Sequence record: OM135583.1
Origin: Escherichia phage EP01
Strand: one strand, 5' to 3'
DNA length: 64,000 nucleotides
Below the pieces are notes generated by a model. It was not told the DNA's origin and made no database searches. It saw only the letters and a list, made by a program, of their open reading frames with translations. Positions 23,947 to 31,613 of the stretch are shown here, piece by piece. Position numbers and translations under genes: made by a program. Each line of letters starts with the position of its first letter. The first letter of the stretch is position 1.

Positions 23947-23999
23947 CCTCATGTTATGTCAGTAAGATTATTATAACACAACACGAGGGACTTGTAAAC
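23947..23999 (-). promoter_or_regulatory. early promoter plus leader cassette, copy 1, upstream of the 96-aa gene
   Basis: Minus strand GTTTACA, 17-nt spacer, TGT-TATAAT, leader with GAGGAA SD; 49/53 identical to copy at 39103-39155. Confidence 0.6.
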
Positions 24000-26056
24000 T
24001 ACATTTTGAACTTTTTAGACATTCCGTTGATGTTAATCAAAGAAGCCAAGATTTGAGAAACTTCGTTTTCCTCTTCTTTTGATTCTTCTACAAGGAATTG
24101 ATTAAATCCAGCCATTGGACGAACTTCACCAGTTTCCATCAGGTGGTCGCCATCATATACCGATTCTTCTAATTGTTCAGAAGGAGGAACGATTGTGCCT
24201 TCGATTAGATACTTGTTATAAGCAGTTTCTTTCATCATGTACGTACTCACTTTATTAATCTTCAGCAAAATTCCACGTGGTAAAATAACTTCAGCTTCTG
24301 ATGGAAATCCTGATAAATGACCCGGAACGATAACTTTGATTCGCTCAGCTCCTTTAATTACCATACCCACGCTAGTTTCAGCATCTTCATTCGCATAAGC
24401 AGAGTGACTGCCCATATGCATCAAATCTTCTGCGTCAACTGAACCTTCTCCTTCACCAGAAAATACTGCACCGGAATCATCTAGAGCCATATAGTTTTTA
24501 CCATACTCACCGAAGATATTTGGTTTAAGCGATGTTGATACGAAGTTCTTGAAATAGAACATTCTATTTTCAATATTATGACGTAAAGTTTTAAAGGTAA
24601 CTTCTTGTCCACGGTAAAGTGTAGTTCCTGGAGGAAGAACTGATCCTTTGGCAAAGGCAGAATCCATTGTCTCGATGTGTTTAATAGCTCGTTCCATATA
24701 TTCTTCACGGGTAGAATCTGGTTTACCTAAAAGGAACGAGTTCATTTCAACATATGAATCTGCACAATAATCTTCAATTACATCAGACTCAGCCTGAGTT
24801 AATCCTTTTGGGGGTACTTCAGTACTTGCATATTCATACGCTTGAGAAGCAGACTCATTAATCAATTTATAAATGCCATTCATGACAAATTGAACAATAG
24901 CTACCTTTTCATCTGGCGTGGCTTTAGAACCTTTAACTAAATCATTGACGATTTTCTTAATAACATCAAAGCTATTAGAAATATTAATGTCAGCAAGATC
25001 GCTTAAAATTTTATCAGTTTTATAATCAAAAAATTCTTTATTCTTTAAATATTCTTGAGAACCTTGATATGTTATATCGCTCTGTAACTTGATAGATGGA
25101 TCACGTAAACGTGCATGAGCCAATGCAATATGATTTCGGAAGCTTTCTAGTTCATAATCATTAGATTTAAAACGAGAAGCACTTCTCATACCACCGATAG
25201 CTCCTTTGCTGAAGTTTGAACCAACCTGAATAACGCCAGAGTTCATTGGTCCTTCTGCTTTATATACTGGAACTTTAGATTCAAACTCTTGATATTTCTT
25301 AGCAGCGAAGCTATCACCCTGAAGTGAAGCATCGACAGTAGAATATTGAGCTTGTGCTGCTAATCGACGACTAATTTTAGTTTTCTGAATTACAGCTTGA
25401 TCCGTGCGCTTATCATTTTCTAAAGCAATAGAAGCAGCAACAGCAACAGCTTTAGGAACAGCATTACCTGTTTTAACGTCTACATAAACATCACCAACCT
25501 TTGATTCAACTTTTGTGAATAACTCAGTTGAAATAGGAGGTACACCTGGAATGTCTTCTAAATTGGCATTTTTACGGTAAACCATAATATATGCATATTT
25601 CTTATCATAGTCCCAGATTTCCTTTAAAAGAACATATCGACCTGCTCCTTTAGTACGCACTAAACGGTCGGCAATAACTTGCATTTGACGAGCAGCGCCA
25701 TTTGTTTTACTCTTTAATACGCGGAATAGGCATGCGTCAATTTTGTACTGTTTCATTGTTTGAAGAGCAGTATCAAAAACCGCATTAATGACACCAATTG
25801 GATTTCCACCCAAGTTTTTAAGTTTAACTAATGATAGTTTCTCGTTGACACCTATCATTACGATATGCATCATTTTATCGCCTGGCTTAACGTTTTTATT
25901 TGTATCACCACCAGAGGTGTATGTACAAAATCTAAATCCAGGAAGCACGCTTTCTTCACCGGCTTGAATAGCAAAAATTTGAGGTATTTTATGCTTAGGA
26001 TTTAAGTTAACAACCGGCGCCGAAGCGCCGTCAAATAATTCTGTAATAAGTTCCAT
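23999..26056 (-). CDS. Alt-like mono-ADP-ribosyltransferase paralogue, 685 aa
   Basis: N-terminus MELITELFD as in Alt; C-terminal YRGQ...FVSTSL...EAEVILPRG consistent with an R-S-E ART core; AAGGA SD. Confidence 0.85.
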   Translation of the reverse strand: MELITELFDGASAPVVNLNPKHKIPQIFAIQAGEESVLPGFRFCTYTSGGDTNKNVKPGDKMMHIVMIGVNEKLSLVKLKNLGGNPIGVINAVFDTALQTMKQYKIDACLFRVLKSKTNGAARQMQVIADRLVRTKGAGRYVLLKEIWDYDKKYAYIMVYRKNANLEDIPGVPPISTELFTKVESKVGDVYVDVKTGNAVPKAVAVAASIALENDKRTDQAVIQKTKISRRLAAQAQYSTVDASLQGDSFAAKKYQEFESKVPVYKAEGPMNSGVIQVGSNFSKGAIGGMRSASRFKSNDYELESFRNHIALAHARLRDPSIKLQSDITYQGSQEYLKNKEFFDYKTDKILSDLADINISNSFDVIKKIVNDLVKGSKATPDEKVAIVQFVMNGIYKLINESASQAYEYASTEVPPKGLTQAESDVIEDYCADSYVEMNSFLLGKPDSTREEYMERAIKHIETMDSAFAKGSVLPPGTTLYRGQEVTFKTLRHNIENRMFYFKNFVSTSLKPNIFGEYGKNYMALDDSGAVFSGEGEGSVDAEDLMHMGSHSAYANEDAETSVGMVIKGAERIKVIVPGHLSGFPSEAEVILPRGILLKINKVSTYMMKETAYNKYLIEGTIVPPSEQLEESVYDGDHLMETGEVRPMAGFNQFLVEESKEEENEVSQILASLININGMSKKFKM

Positions 26057-26059
26057 GAT

Positions 26060-28153
26060 TTATCCTTGAACGAACTTGTAAGGCATGTTTGTAATATCTA
26101 TGCAAGACGCAATAATTCCGAGAGATGATTCTGCTTTCTGTTTAACATTTGATGAAACAAATGATGCAAAGTCAACTCTGTCTTCTATTTCAATATCACC
26201 TGTCATTGCAACTACTTCACCGGTTTCCATTAGACGGTCACCGTCATAAATGACTGATTCGGTGAGTTCTTCCGTAGTCATAACTTCAGCTTGAATGAGT
26301 TTTGTGTTATTAGATGTTGTTCCGTCATTATTAGAAGCATCAGTTATTTTATTAACTTTGACCATCAATCCGCGTGGTAGAATTACTTCAGCTTCTGTTG
26401 CTATTCCGAGACTCCCTGGATATACAACATTAACTTTATGAGCTCCATCAATTGCCCATCCTATTTGAACTTTAACGTATTCAGGATTTTCTTTATACGC
26501 TCTTATTTCGTTCGGATTAATAGTTATTCCTTCTTCATTTTTATCAACTGTTAATTCATTACGAGCTTCTGGTTCTAAAAGACCGATACCAGCATGTGTA
26601 ATTCCAAAACGTCCAAAAATGATAGGAGTTAAAGAAGTAGATACAAAATTTCTGAAATAGAACACTTTATTTTTAACTAGTGCTTCGTATATAGGAGCAG
26701 TCATACTTTGAGCACGATAAACTGTAATGCCTTCTGGTATACGGTCACCATTTTCAAAAGCTGAATCTAAATTATTTATCGCAGATTCAATTTCTTTTTC
26801 ACTCATTACATCATATCGTTCTGGATTGTAGCGGCCTAAAAGAAGATTATTGATGTCAGTATATCCTGATCCACAATATTCTCTAATGCCGCGCTTTTGC
26901 GATGGAGTATATTTAGAACCATCACGTGCAATGGTAATATCAATCATTGGACCTGCACCAATTCCAGAAAAGCTGTAAATCATTCTTTTGAGGAATTTAG
27001 TTTTTGCTGCGTTCCAGGAATTTTTAGTTATTTCTTCCCAGACTTCATCTGGCTGTCCTTTACGGGTTTTATTATGTTTATCAAGCCAAGTATCTTTATA
27101 TTCTTCAAAGAATTTATTAATAGCTGCTGCATACTTCTCTAAACATTTTATTGAAGTAGTTGGTTCATTTTTAATCGCATTAAGAATTACATCTTTAATT
27201 TTTTCAGAAACTTCATTAACCTCACTTTTTGAAAAGAATTTATAATCATAGTGAAGTTCATCTGCAGTTCCTTCGGCAATAATTTTTGCTGCTTTAGTTT
27301 TAGAAGCTAATGAATTAATTCCAAGTTTCATTTCTTCTGCTTCAGGAATTAAAGGAGCTGTAGCAGGTTTATTGAAATTAGCTGCGGTAGATTCATACTT
27401 CTGAAATAATTCATTTTCAAATCTAGAAGATTCTAATGATTGACTTTGCGCAATTGCTCTACGGGAAATTTTAACTTTAACGATTACAGCTTGGTCAGAA
27501 CGTTTATCATTTTCTTGCGCAATAGATGCTGCAATTGCCTCATTTTTAGTTACTTGGGCTCCAGTATCTTTATTGATATAAACATCGCCGACCTTCGATT
27601 CAACTTTAGTAAAGAGCTCGGTACTAATTTCCGGAACTCCTGGAATGTCTTCTAGTGATACATTTTTGCGATGTATAAGAATATATGCATACTTTTTATC
27701 GTAATCCCAGAGTTCCTTAAGAAGGACGTATCTGCCACCTGAACGACTACGGATAAGTCTATCAGCAATAACTTGAATTTGTCGAGCTTGGCCAGCAGTT
27801 TTAGACTTAAGAATACGAAGCATGCAGGCATCAATTTTATACTGACGCATCGTTTGCATCGCAACAGTAAAAACTGAATTGATGTAATTAATTGGGCTTG
27901 GACCGAGACCTTTCAATTTAGCAATTGAACCTTTAGCAGTTAATGTAAAAGGAACAATGTGCATCATTTTATCGCCCATCTTTAGATCACGGTTAGTATC
28001 ACCTCCAGATGTATAGGTACATAAACGAAAGCCTGGTTGTTCAATTGCGTCATCAACATGAACTGAAAAAATTTGCGGTATTTTCTTCTTTGGATTTAAG
28101 TTTGTAATCGGAAGAGTAGTATCTTCGTCAAATAATTCTGTAATGAGTTCCAT
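26060..28153 (-). CDS. alt: ADP-ribosyltransferase Alt, 697 aa
   Basis: N-terminus MELITELFDEDTTLPITNLNPKKKIPQIF matches remembered T4 Alt; adjacent to gene 30; second ATG chosen on SD spacing; late promoter 20 nt upstream. Confidence 0.85.
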   Translation of the reverse strand: MELITELFDEDTTLPITNLNPKKKIPQIFSVHVDDAIEQPGFRLCTYTSGGDTNRDLKMGDKMMHIVPFTLTAKGSIAKLKGLGPSPINYINSVFTVAMQTMRQYKIDACMLRILKSKTAGQARQIQVIADRLIRSRSGGRYVLLKELWDYDKKYAYILIHRKNVSLEDIPGVPEISTELFTKVESKVGDVYINKDTGAQVTKNEAIAASIAQENDKRSDQAVIVKVKISRRAIAQSQSLESSRFENELFQKYESTAANFNKPATAPLIPEAEEMKLGINSLASKTKAAKIIAEGTADELHYDYKFFSKSEVNEVSEKIKDVILNAIKNEPTTSIKCLEKYAAAINKFFEEYKDTWLDKHNKTRKGQPDEVWEEITKNSWNAAKTKFLKRMIYSFSGIGAGPMIDITIARDGSKYTPSQKRGIREYCGSGYTDINNLLLGRYNPERYDVMSEKEIESAINNLDSAFENGDRIPEGITVYRAQSMTAPIYEALVKNKVFYFRNFVSTSLTPIIFGRFGITHAGIGLLEPEARNELTVDKNEEGITINPNEIRAYKENPEYVKVQIGWAIDGAHKVNVVYPGSLGIATEAEVILPRGLMVKVNKITDASNNDGTTSNNTKLIQAEVMTTEELTESVIYDGDRLMETGEVVAMTGDIEIEDRVDFASFVSSNVKQKAESSLGIIASCIDITNMPYKFVQG

Positions 28154-28176
28154 CATATCCTCTCTAGTGTTTATTC

Positions 28177-28207: not shown

Positions 28208-28394
28208 AATAATCTAATGGTAAGAGAGTACGATATATTTCAAACTTTGGACCTTTTTCATAGGCATCAAATGTTTCTGTGAATTTATTATAAGCATATG
28301 CATCTACAAATTCGAGAATGACTTGTGATACAGAAGTAGAAACATCTCCACCTTCTTTTTGAGCAATGACAATTGTTTCTAAGTAAGCTTTCAT
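28206..28394 (-). CDS. hypothetical protein, 62 aa
   Basis: ATG overlaps gene 30 stop (ATGA); hairpin terminator immediately downstream. Confidence 0.5.
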   Translation of the reverse strand: MKAYLETIVIAQKEGGDVSTSVSQVILEFVDAYAYNKFTETFDAYEKGPKFEIYRTLLPLDY

Positions 28395-29854
28395 AGACCA
28401 GTTACCTCATGAAAATCACCAAATACATCCTCGAATGTATTAGCTTTAGTTTTATCTTCACGTAAACGAATCGCAATCGGAAGAAATAATTTAACGTAAT
28501 CAGTGCGGCCATCAGATTTTAACCAACCGTTGCATTCGCACTCTAGAATTTTTCCAATATAATAATTTTGGTTTTCCATAATGCGAGTACGGTCAAGTTC
28601 ATGTGATTTTACACCGGCTTTATCTTTTAAGCCTGAACCAGCATTTACTTTAATTTTTCCACATTCTGATTCAAGAATAAATCCACCCGCTTTAGTAGGG
28701 TCTTTACGGTGAGGATAAATTCCTACAATTTTTAAATCAACATCAATTACTTCTTTAAATTTATAGAGATTTTTTGAACGAGCATTTTCCCACAATCCAT
28801 CGGTATTTTTGAGAATAATACCTTCAAGACCTTGGTCAATATATTTTTTATAAATTACCTTAGCTTCATCTAGGTTATTTACTACCTGGTTTTCAATTAA
28901 AATTACTTTATCATATACTGATGTCATTTGTTCTAGTTTAGAAAAACGTACATCATATTTTAAACGAAACGCCGGAAGACCGTATATTTCTACCAACGGG
29001 ACATAATCCCAGACCTGAAACTTCATGCATTGAGCTTCTTTTTCAGAAATGGTTCCTTTTAAGGATTTATTGGCGATTCCATTAGAAGTAGTACGAGATT
29101 CCGCTACTTCGGCGAATTCATTAGCTTTACTAATTTCAGGATAAGCATCAAAAAGAAAATCTAGGCCTTCTGGTTCCTTTTTAACTTGCTCATGGTATAC
29201 CAATTCACCATCGATTAACACACCTTCTGGATGAATCTGGCGGGCTTCAGCAGTCATTTTGATTAACTCTTCCTTAAGAAGATCTAATCCTAGATATTCA
29301 TTACCAGCTCGTGATAAAAGACGAACATCATCTAATTCATCTCCTCGGACTTCAGCAAAACACCGAGCTCCATCTGCTTTTAACTGCGCAAAAGCTGGAA
29401 ACTTGATATTCTTACTAATGCCTTTTTCATCATAAGAACTTGCCAGCATTTGAGGTTGTTCAGGAATTAAACCTGGCCAAACTTTGTTTGCAATAGATAC
29501 TGAAGCACCGCATTCAAGGTCTCGCATCATCACTCGACGTAAAACTTCAACATCATCCTTTTTACCATCAGTGATATATCCAGTTAATTCCTCAATTGCT
29601 GCATTTCCAGTCAATTTCCGAGTAGCTAACGTGAATTCAATGAAGTCAAGCATATCGGTAATAGTCAGCATTCCAAAACTCTGGGTAGCAATACCAGGTT
29701 TAGGCCATTTCTTGATATAATACTGTAACCCACGAGAATAAGTCAGACGATATACTCGTTTAAGCAATTCATTATTTTTATTCTTTTCAAGAATTGCTTG
29801 CTTCTGTTTAGTTGATCCAATAGATGCTATTTCATTCAGAATTTTAAGAATCAT
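28391..29854 (-). CDS. 30: ATP-dependent DNA ligase, 487 aa
   Basis: Adenylation motif KADGAR (active-site Lys); size identical to T4 DNA ligase. Confidence 0.95.
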   Translation of the reverse strand: MILKILNEIASIGSTKQKQAILEKNKNNELLKRVYRLTYSRGLQYYIKKWPKPGIATQSFGMLTITDMLDFIEFTLATRKLTGNAAIEELTGYITDGKKDDVEVLRRVMMRDLECGASVSIANKVWPGLIPEQPQMLASSYDEKGISKNIKFPAFAQLKADGARCFAEVRGDELDDVRLLSRAGNEYLGLDLLKEELIKMTAEARQIHPEGVLIDGELVYHEQVKKEPEGLDFLFDAYPEISKANEFAEVAESRTTSNGIANKSLKGTISEKEAQCMKFQVWDYVPLVEIYGLPAFRLKYDVRFSKLEQMTSVYDKVILIENQVVNNLDEAKVIYKKYIDQGLEGIILKNTDGLWENARSKNLYKFKEVIDVDLKIVGIYPHRKDPTKAGGFILESECGKIKVNAGSGLKDKAGVKSHELDRTRIMENQNYYIGKILECECNGWLKSDGRTDYVKLFLPIAIRLREDKTKANTFEDVFGDFHEVTGL

Positions 29855-30120
29855 TGTTCATCCTTCAGAGTTTGATTTACATCTCTATTATAAATCAATT
29901 CATCATTAAGCTCAGGCAAAGACTTATGATATGTCGTTCTAACTTTATTTCCTTGCATCCAGTGCTTGACGTAAATGAAACCTTGCTCTACACATTTTTT
30001 AAAAATTCGTTCATCCTTTTGAGCACGGAACTCTGGATTGCATCTAAAAAATTGATTTACGTGACCATAATCACGTGTAGTATTACCTTCATTTTCATAA
30101 ATAGTATGAACAACAAACAT
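29851..30120 (-). CDS. hypothetical protein, 89 aa (gene 30 cluster)
   Basis: Same-strand ORF with 4-nt overlaps on both sides. Confidence 0.6.
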   Translation of the reverse strand: MFVVHTIYENEGNTTRDYGHVNQFFRCNPEFRAQKDERIFKKCVEQGFIYVKHWMQGNKVRTTYHKSLPELNDELIYNRDVNQTLKDEQ

Positions 30121-30959
30121 TAGAATGCTCCTTGAAAAATATTATCACCACTAGTAGGTCTATTATACAAATACTCTATGCCACCAGGTTTAATATAGTT
30201 CCATGTCTGAAACGGATGTGTCTGATATGGATGATATAGATGATTATAAGGATTTAATCCAGGCGTTCTCCAGGTAGTGTTCCAAGGAAAAGAATCGTTT
30301 TTAACCATCTTCTCAATTAAATCTTTTATAGCTTTTTCACTATCAAAACTTTCTTTATTTTCCTTCGGCGAAAAAAGCTTATTTTCTACATCATTCCATG
30401 TATAAACTCGCTGCGCAGTTTTTGGAATATTGTCACGCTCTCCTCGAGCCATCCAATAAACTGGAACATTTAATATTTCACTCGCATGATCGCAGTGATG
30501 AGCGAGATCGTCAATATAACAAATTACGTTATATTTCTCTTTTGCCTTTTTGAACAGCTCTTCTTTTGAAGAATCATGACCACACATCATTACTTCTGAG
30601 AAGGCACCAGGAAAAAGAGCGTTCAAATTAAATTGACGATTCAACAGAGCGTCAATAGAATCACCCAATGCTGTAACAGCTACAAAATTATAATCTTCTT
30701 TTAATTTGTTAATTACACACAGGGCATCTTTATACGGAGACAAGTAACGAATAAAATCTGAACGATTGTATTTTTCAATTAACTTGACGCCAAGTTCTTC
30801 GTCACAATTAAAGAGTTTACCTGGAGAAATAAATTTCTCATCTTGGATCATTTTTAAAATATGTTCTAATGGAAGATTATATTTCTGAGCAAAATAAGGA
30901 AGGCCTGATTGCCAGCTTAAACATACTCCATCAATATCAGTCAAAATAGTTGGCTTCAT
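30120..30959 (-). CDS. HAD-like hydrolase family protein, 279 aa
   Basis: N-terminal ILTDIDGV (DxDG motif I of the HAD superfamily). Confidence 0.65.
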   Translation of the reverse strand: MKPTILTDIDGVCLSWQSGLPYFAQKYNLPLEHILKMIQDEKFISPGKLFNCDEELGVKLIEKYNRSDFIRYLSPYKDALCVINKLKEDYNFVAVTALGDSIDALLNRQFNLNALFPGAFSEVMMCGHDSSKEELFKKAKEKYNVICYIDDLAHHCDHASEILNVPVYWMARGERDNIPKTAQRVYTWNDVENKLFSPKENKESFDSEKAIKDLIEKMVKNDSFPWNTTWRTPGLNPYNHLYHPYQTHPFQTWNYIKPGGIEYLYNRPTSGDNIFQGAF

Positions 30960-31420
30960 AGAGAGTCTCTTAATAGGTTTAACACATCAATAAATTCAGC
31001 TTCGGTTAGTATTGTATCATCTTTTGTTAGACCATTAGCCATGCTGTGCTTCAAAACTTTTCCTTTCGAGGCTTGTAATGCATCACGAAAACCCCTGTTT
31101 TGGATCGCTGCTTCAAAATATGCATTTGTGTATAATTCTTTCCATGCTTCGGAATATCTTGAAAACGGAGTTCCAAGCCAGAACAACGTGCCACGGTCCT
31201 GAGCTCTAGCATAAGACCTTCCAGCTTGTTGGGCGGCAAGCCCGGATAACCCAAATATACGTCTTTGCTGTTCAACATTTTTCACCTTACATCCTTGGAG
31301 GAATCCTTCGAGACCTCCAAATTGGATACCATCCATAACGAAAGGCCATTGGGCGAAATTGCTTAATGCACATGATGGCCATCTAAAATTGCTTCTTATC
31401 TCTAGCTCAGACATTTTCAA
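30956..31420 (-). CDS. NADAR/YbiA (DUF1768)-family protein, 154 aa
   Basis: LSNFAQWPFVMDGIQF aligns by eye with the E. coli YbiA core FSNFAAWPIKVDGKTW. Confidence 0.7.
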   Translation of the reverse strand: MKMSELEIRSNFRWPSCALSNFAQWPFVMDGIQFGGLEGFLQGCKVKNVEQQRRIFGLSGLAAQQAGRSYARAQDRGTLFWLGTPFSRYSEAWKELYTNAYFEAAIQNRGFRDALQASKGKVLKHSMANGLTKDDTILTEAEFIDVLNLLRDSL

Positions 31421-31613
31421 TACTTATAATTTCAACATCAGCCCAATGACCATAGCAAGGAAGACGAAATTCAACTGGCCAGTTAGGGTCCTTTTCTAAT
31501 ATAATAGACTGAACTTGTGGCTCTTCATATTCATCGGTATACGGACCTTTATACGTTACTTTATATGTGACCTTAATGTACTGAATTCCAAAAATCTTAT
31601 TAATTATATTCAT
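31407..31613 (-). CDS. hypothetical protein, 68 aa
   Basis: Same-strand ORF in compact array. Confidence 0.5.
   Translation of the reverse strand: MNIINKIFGIQYIKVTYKVTYKGPYTDEYEEPQVQSIILEKDPNWPVEFRLPCYGHWADVEIISIENV

Follow-up and report, generated by a model that had tools for sequence, protein, structure and literature searches.

The gene analyzed here has its closest described counterpart in gene 30.3 of phage T4. NADAR domains in T4-like phages were noted earlier by bioinformatics (PMC9503650); for the phage NADARs of the His type, Schuller et al. refer to the definition of the superfamily by de Souza and Aravind from 2012 (PMC11543638). The T4 protein, gp30.3, hydrolyzes guanine-ADP-ribose and not thymidine-ADP-ribose on oligonucleotides, and it fails to rescue E. 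coli from DarT1 (PMC11125620). Cytidine-ADP-ribose is likewise not removed by the T4 NADAR (PMC12945103). Johannesman et al. mapped resistance to DarTG1 to 30.3 and renamed the gene adfN, for anti-DarT factor NADAR (PMC11825919). In that study, plaquing on DarTG1 was abolished in T4 or T2 without adfN, RB69 was rescued by ectopic adfN, C-terminal truncation impaired AdfN, and the purified protein stripped ADP-ribose from DarT1-modified DNA (PMC11825919). For T4 and T2, AdfN is both required and sufficient for resistance to DarTG1. Stable binding of AdfN to DarT1 was not detected in a bacterial two-hybrid assay, and DarTG2 was not countered (PMC11825919). Independently, in a transposon screen, insertions in 30.3 were lost on DarTG1 hosts only, indicating that the gene is conditionally essential there (bioRxiv 10.1101/2025.11.20.689424), and 30.3 is dispensable on K-12 (bioRxiv 10.1101/2025.11.20.689424; PMC11825919).

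Here, we analyzed a gene of Escherichia phage EP01 that lies in a window of 64,000 nucleotides from sequence record OM135583.1. The gene is a T4-type gene 30.3, that is, adfN; it is already published, and the analysis adds nothing new on its biology. We consider it very probable that the gene encodes a core-only NADAR that would clear phage DNA of the ADP-ribose that DarT1 attaches to its guanines, so that replication can proceed. The original prediction for this ORF had offered either a counter-defense hydrolase acting on ADP-ribosyl-guanine in DNA or a housekeeping enzyme. The former has been published as the function of the T4 orthologue, to which the EP01 protein is 97% identical (PMC11825919, PMC11125620), but the latter is not favored by the experiments. 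Two of the tests proposed with that prediction are already in the literature: the plaque assay with a deletion mutant, in the form of T4 and T2 lacking adfN, which fail on DarTG1 (PMC11825919), and of the lost 30.3 insertions (bioRxiv 10.1101/2025.11.20.689424); and the assay on ADP-ribosylated DNA, in which the T4 orthologue hydrolyzed guanine-ADP-ribose (PMC11125620, PMC11825919).

The gene 30.3 locus of phage EP01

The minus-strand ORF at 30956-31420 is real, running for 154 amino acids from a TTG to a TGA stop at 30956-30958. However, the mechanical ORF call, and the original prediction with it, began two codons too early. The in-frame TTG (31418-31420, minus strand) lies two codons upstream of an ATG at 31412-31414 and is probably not the true start of adfN. 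The ATG, which gives a protein of 152 amino acids, is the likely start because T4 30.3 is annotated as 459 nt and 152 aa from an ATG, the close homologues of the EP01 protein start with MSELEIRS, and the published numbering of E36 and K43 fits the ATG only. We took 30956-31414 (minus strand; 152 codons plus TGA) as the gene on account of the 152-aa T4 annotation and of the overlaps at both ends, where the ATG of adfN overlaps the 30.4 stop (ATGTCTGA) and its stop overlaps the 30.2 start (ATGA). The product is annotated here as a DNA ADP-ribosylglycohydrolase of the phage NADAR clade, based on the ORF, its match to Pfam family PF08010, its identity to the T4 protein, the T4 annotation, and AlphaFold2 and Foldseek analyses.

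The EP01 protein and T4 gp30.3 align without gaps and are identical at 147 of 152 positions (97%). The five substitutions relative to T4, V82T, P89E, K106R, I125M and S127N, all fall outside the columns that are invariant in the family, and the methionine at position 125 is the family consensus. From its sequence we infer, with high confidence, that this allele would behave as T4 AdfN, including in resistance to DarTG1. Since the allele is intact, EP01 is predicted to be resistant to E. coli carrying DarTG1, a prediction that is useful for the host range of therapeutic T4-like phages.

EP01 has a Tequatrovirus genome in which adfN is flanked by 30.4 and 30.2 and lies upstream of the DNA ligase gene, and the order of genes is that of 30, 30.1, 30.2, 30.3 and 30.4 in T4. 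Transcriptionally upstream is a 68-aa ORF (31407-31613); downstream are the 279-aa ORF encoding gp30.2 (30120-30959, minus strand), a DUF3045 protein of 89 aa, and a 487-aa ORF (28391-29854) whose matching regions in related phages carry the annotation DNA ligase. The ligase match and the T4 gene order bear out the earlier placement of the gene in a gene 30 cluster. Across the 2.4-kb neighborhood of adfN, identity to Escherichia phage vB_EcoM_JE01 is 99.2%; in all, 724 phage records match this neighborhood, most of them from Tequatrovirus phages of E. coli and Shigella. A scan for promoters and terminators around the gene 30 cluster revealed no excess over shuffled sequence (15 vs 13.4; 4 vs 2.6).

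Two further features of the region deserve description. Inside adfN is an out-of-frame ORF of 75 aa (31051-31278, minus strand) that corresponds to 30.3' of T4, annotated there as "internal translation in a different reading frame", and that matches a separate Pfam family, DUF2883 (E = 7e-43). In the adfN homologue of Acinetobacter phage KARL-1, a comparable ORF of 77 aa is open in the +1 frame, and this frame is not open in the RB49, Vibrio, Aeromonas, Karamvirus and Ochrobactrum homologues. The 75-aa ORF may be a genuine overlapping gene or a relic of annotation. Past the ligase gene, on the side opposite adfN, are two tandem genes for Alt-like ADP-ribosyltransferases (23999-26056 and 26060-28156, both minus strand) of 685 and 698 aa. 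Each product matches PF03496, and the two share 41% identity. The T4 stretch used for comparison begins inside alt, which adjoins alt.1 and gene 30 there.

Family membership and predicted fold

The EP01 protein matched Pfam family PF08010 (Phage_30_3) with E = 6e-69 and 230.6 bits (cutoff 36), covering profile positions 1-138 of 138. The original prediction had placed it in the NADAR/YbiA-like family on the strength of a single motif, LSNFAQWPFVMDGIQF (residues 17-32 of the ATG-started protein; 31319-31366, minus strand). In HMMER and hhalign alignments this motif is equivalent to YbiA FSNFAAWPIKVDGKTW, to which it is identical at 8 of 16 positions. The YbiA motif given with that prediction is correct, as read from ybiA of E. 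coli K-12 (NC_000913) and from PDB entry 2b3w. Because so short a match could be chance, the likeness was checked at the profile level. Among 5.8 billion proteins searched, 93 relatives were found. All have PF08010, and JGI names some of them "YbiA (DUF1768 family)"; 46 of the 93 made up our family alignment and profile. Searched against PDB sequences, the profile matched YbiA (2b3w, E = 0.0022) over exactly the motif stretch and matched no other entry. Direct comparison of the gp30.3 family with E. coli YbiA by hhalign gave a probability of 94.9% and E = 4.2e-8 over 91 columns. Judged by these two profile comparisons, the resemblance to YbiA is beyond chance.

In addition, 19 of the 46 family members individually matched the Pfam NADAR family PF08719, the best with E = 1.5e-7. 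By contrast, the EP01 protein on its own had no match to PF08719 at E ≤ 1 in a Pfam scan that returned PF08010 only; Pfam keeps gp30.3 as a family apart from NADAR. A phmmer search of the EP01 protein against PDB sequences gave no matches, nor did a search of NCBIfam, which is without a model for this gene. Since these single-protein searches all missed the NADAR link, detecting it took a family profile or a structure model, and membership rests on profile and fold evidence. The assignment is upheld by the profile-profile comparison, by the 19 members with PF08719 and by the predicted fold. As for the HHpred/Pfam check that had been proposed, the comparison of profiles by hhalign was positive, but a plain Pfam test alone would have appeared negative. 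Members of the gp30.3 family occur in 1510 phage records, from phages of Escherichia, Klebsiella, Aeromonas, Acinetobacter, Vibrio and other hosts.

AlphaFold2, run with a 45-sequence alignment from which the T4 sequence was left out, yielded a model of the EP01 protein with a pLDDT of 93.4 and a pTM of 0.89. The model has six helices and small strand pairs and adopts a YbiA-like alpha+beta fold, in which a helical core is flanked by two small sheets. The best three Foldseek matches in the PDB were YbiA (2b3w; E = 4e-5, TM 0.67), the NADAR of P. nicotianae with ADP-ribose (8bau; E = 0.012) and a DarG1-type NADAR of G. lovleyi (8bat; E = 0.068). Nothing credible was found in the PDB beyond these three, all other matches having E > 2 and a probability of at most 0.07. 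The same three structures were found in the published analysis of T4 gp30.3 (PMC11825919). The C-terminal helix (residues 138-152; 30959-31003, minus strand; modeled as a helix over 138-151) is absent from the inactive RB69 allele and intact here, and the EP01 ORF ends in LLRDSL before the stop, exactly as in T4. Our tblastn match to RB69 stops at residue 137, in agreement with the published frameshift through which the RB69 allele lost activity (PMC11825919).

Active site and likely substrate

We mapped active-site residues by chaining the hhalign alignment of the family and YbiA with a phmmer alignment of YbiA and 8bau; E43 and K50 of PnNADAR, in the numbering of the paper, are residues E45 and K52 of the chain. 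E36 (codon GAA, 31307-31309, minus strand), the predicted distal-ribose-coordinating glutamate, is equivalent to YbiA E48, PnNADAR E43 and E. coli C7 NADAR E88, and is invariant in the 46 sequences. K43 (AAG, 31286-31288, minus strand), the predicted phosphate- and adenine-contacting lysine, is equivalent to YbiA K55, PnNADAR K50 and C7 NADAR K95 and is conserved in at least 90% of them. Together they form the NADAR pair of a glutamate and a lysine seven residues apart, as in E43/K50 of PnNADAR and E88/K95 of C7 NADAR. H123 (CAC, 31046-31048, minus strand), in the last strand, is invariant in the 46 sequences and is equivalent to YbiA E125, PnNADAR E125 and C7 NADAR D171; we set it opposite YbiA E125 because the hhalign alignment ends one residue earlier, opposite V124. 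This position defines the phage clade, and is a glutamate in NADARs of the YbiA type and an aspartate in those of the DarG1 type (PMC11125620, PMC11543638). Other invariant columns of the 46-member alignment include P13, L17, S18, N19, F20, F25, G37, F38, Q40, T134, L136, T137 and R149. The catalytic residues are thus present and invariant or nearly so across the family, which settles the check on them that had been proposed.

In the structure of PnNADAR with ADP-ribose, the distal ribose is coordinated by E43 and E125, and K50 is in contact with the adenine and phosphates; mutation of E88, K95 or D171 in C7 NADAR abolished rescue from DarT1 (PMC11543638). In the gp30.3 clade, the alignments reveal no evident conserved equivalents of D130 and W133, which contact the pyrophosphate in PnNADAR, and the segment after H123 (DTILT) is variable up to the invariant T134-x-L136-T137. 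Because these counterparts are not evident, details of the active site may differ from those of PnNADAR. The exact catalytic role of H123 is one that we infer.

The last-strand residue also bears on whether the protein is a YbiA-like N-glycosidase of the riboflavin pathway that clears reactive riboflavin intermediates. YbiA is its best match in the PDB by both structure and sequence, and RefSeq calls YbiA an N-glycosidase. However, the last-strand glutamate of the YbiA family is replaced by an invariant histidine in the gp30.3 family, riboflavin genes were not found among the neighbors examined, and the DarTG1 phenotype already accounts for retention of the gene. We therefore give this function almost no credence.

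It is just as improbable that AdfN is not an enzyme at all and instead inhibits DarT1 stoichiometrically, by binding and blocking it, in the manner of AdfA (gp61.2) and type II antitoxins. AdfA and AdfB do work by binding, and the E36A and K43A substitutions, which impair AdfN of T4, leave it partial rescue (PMC11825919). The lack of stable association between AdfN and DarT1 in the two-hybrid assay and the removal of ADP-ribose from DNA by the purified protein (PMC11825919) argue against such a mode of action. So does the invariance of the active-site residues across distant phages, which is as expected of an enzyme.

The remaining alternative concerns the substrate. A housekeeping or signal-quenching hydrolase would act on soluble ADP-ribose derivatives, such as host immune signals or by-products of RNA repair, or on collateral modifications made by Alt and Mod, and its activity on DNA would be secondary. 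The presence of the two Alt-like ADP-ribosyltransferase genes 3-7 kb from adfN in the window is consistent with this possibility, as is the retention of the gene in about 1500 phage records and in varied genomic contexts. However, Alt and Mod enzymes ADP-ribosylate arginines in proteins, and we know of no NADAR shown to cleave the arginine-ADP-ribose linkage. Iyer et al. proposed that phage NADARs prefer ADP-ribose derivatives of low molecular weight and pointed to their co-expression with ADP-ribosyltransferases in T4-like phages (PMC9503650). By contrast, conditional essentiality on DarTG1 hosts is the sole phenotype found for T4 30.3, which K-12 hosts do not require (bioRxiv 10.1101/2025.11.20.689424; PMC11825919), and ADP-ribosylated DNA is a substrate of the purified protein (PMC11825919, PMC11125620). 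A primary role of this kind is improbable. All three alternatives run counter to published experiments or to the substitution of histidine for glutamate.

We therefore favor removal of DarT1-installed ADP-ribose from phage DNA. In the proposed mechanism, the adfN product, a minimal, core-only N-glycosidase of the NADAR fold, would be made from the gene 30-rIII cluster. During T-even infection of a DarTG1 cell, the DarT1 toxin would ADP-ribosylate the N2 of guanine in phage DNA and thereby block replication. AdfN would bind the ADP-ribose, with K43 directed to the phosphates and adenine and with E36 and H123 flanking the distal ribose, and would hydrolyze the bond between ribose and guanine, so that the DNA would be unmodified again and replication could proceed. 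AdfN would in this way be an "orphan antitoxin" that does the job of the host DarG1 on behalf of the phage.

Context dependence, allelic variation and relation to known systems

AdfN is fully effective in T-even infections only, regardless of whether the DNA carries hmC or glucosyl modifications; T5 and Bas25 are weakly rescued by AdfN of T4 (PMC11825919), and uninfected cells are not rescued from DarT1 (PMC11825919, PMC11125620). A free enzyme that cleans any DNA is therefore an incomplete description. One possible explanation, which we regard as doubtful, is that AdfN depends on a partner, or on a site of action, specific to T-even phages, such as the phage replisome or recombination machinery on single-stranded DNA. 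It is similarly unlikely, if worth entertaining, that such a dependence would account for the fold being core-only, for the active site being of the His type and for the lack of a counterpart of D130/W133. The need for a T-even context has already been raised in the literature.

We considered gp30.2 as an obligatory T-even partner of AdfN, given that its gene is translationally coupled to adfN through the ATGA overlap. The N-terminal 175 residues of gp30.2 are 49% identical to the product of the gene that adjoins adfN in Acinetobacter phage KARL-1. Among the phages examined, however, a gp30.2 homologue lies at most 3 kb from adfN in T4 and KARL-1 only; none was found that close to the gene in the RB49, Vibrio, Aeromonas, Karamvirus and Ochrobactrum phages. 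With co-location confined to the T4 type and KARL-1, adfN and 30.2 are not a conserved pair, and we dropped gp30.2 as a candidate. The protein had no match in Pfam or NCBIfam and belongs to a PHROG of unknown function only; it begins with MKPTILTDIDGV, which resembles the DxDG motif of HAD phosphatases.

The position of adfN itself varies among phages. In RB49 the gene directly abuts the ligase gene. Its homologues in Aeromonas phage UP87 and in Enterobacter phage vB_VIPECLUMC02, a Karamvirus, lie within a phage tRNA cluster and not near ligase, while that of a Vibrio phage is upstream of sbcCD-like genes and that of an Ochrobactrum phage adjoins a helicase gene.

Public data also contain disrupted alleles of adfN. 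Two are frameshift chimeras of the 30.3 and 30.3' frames, one of them in phage vB_Eco_NR1, and in two others a deletion has joined the C-terminal portion of gp30.3 to the N-terminus of either gp30.7 or gp30.8. Phage SV76 encodes an N-terminally truncated product without E36 and K43, and RB69 has the known C-terminal truncation. Loss of adfN thus appears to recur among phages, and those with disrupted alleles are predicted to be sensitive to DarTG1. adfN is ordinary for a T4-like genome, and the main value of the analysis is one of annotation: the gene is nearly always a "hypothetical protein" in the INPHARED records examined, and its function has already been demonstrated experimentally.

Compared with T4 AdfN, the EP01 protein shares 97% identity over 152 residues, the position between 30.4 and 30.2 near ligase, the E36/K43/H123 set and the C-terminal helix. 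It differs by the five substitutions listed above.

DarG1 (BC4488-type; C7 NADAR, G. lovleyi 8bat) shares with the EP01 protein the NADAR fold and the Glu/Lys pair; its chemistry, the hydrolysis of guanine-N2-ADP-ribose on DNA, and the toxin that it counters are also those of T4 AdfN (PMC11543638). However, DarG1 has an aspartate in the last strand (D171 in C7 NADAR) where the EP01 protein has its histidine. The EP01 protein is, moreover, core-only, its 152 residues reaching the SNF motif by residue 18, and lacks the beta1-beta2-alpha1 N-terminal extension of DarG1, which forms a proposed basic groove for DNA (PMC12945103). adfN is not beside a DarT1 gene; its neighbors are 30.4 and 30.2, and the nearest ADP-ribosyltransferase genes are those of the Alt-like PF03496 type. 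In addition, AdfN is no substitute for DarG1 in uninfected cells (PMC11825919, PMC11125620).

E. coli YbiA (2b3w) is the best fold match and has in common with the EP01 protein the SNFA-WP--DG motif, the glutamate and the lysine. The two proteins are about 18-24% identical, and they differ at the last strand, where E125 becomes H123, and in the D130/W133 motif, which is not conserved. Furthermore, cytidine-ADP-ribose is a substrate of YbiA and not of the T4 NADAR (PMC12945103).

Finally, AdfA (gp61.2), AdfB and AdfM (Tk.4) share with AdfN the role of neutralizing DarTG, and none is homologous to it (PMC11825919; bioRxiv 10.1101/2025.11.20.689424). Unlike AdfN, AdfA and AdfB are non-enzymatic DarT binders (PMC11825919; bioRxiv 10.1101/2025.11.20.689424). 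AdfM is, like AdfN, an orphan antitoxin-like hydrolase, but it is a macrodomain directed against DarTG2 and thymidine-ADP-ribose (PMC11825919; bioRxiv 10.1101/2025.11.20.689424).
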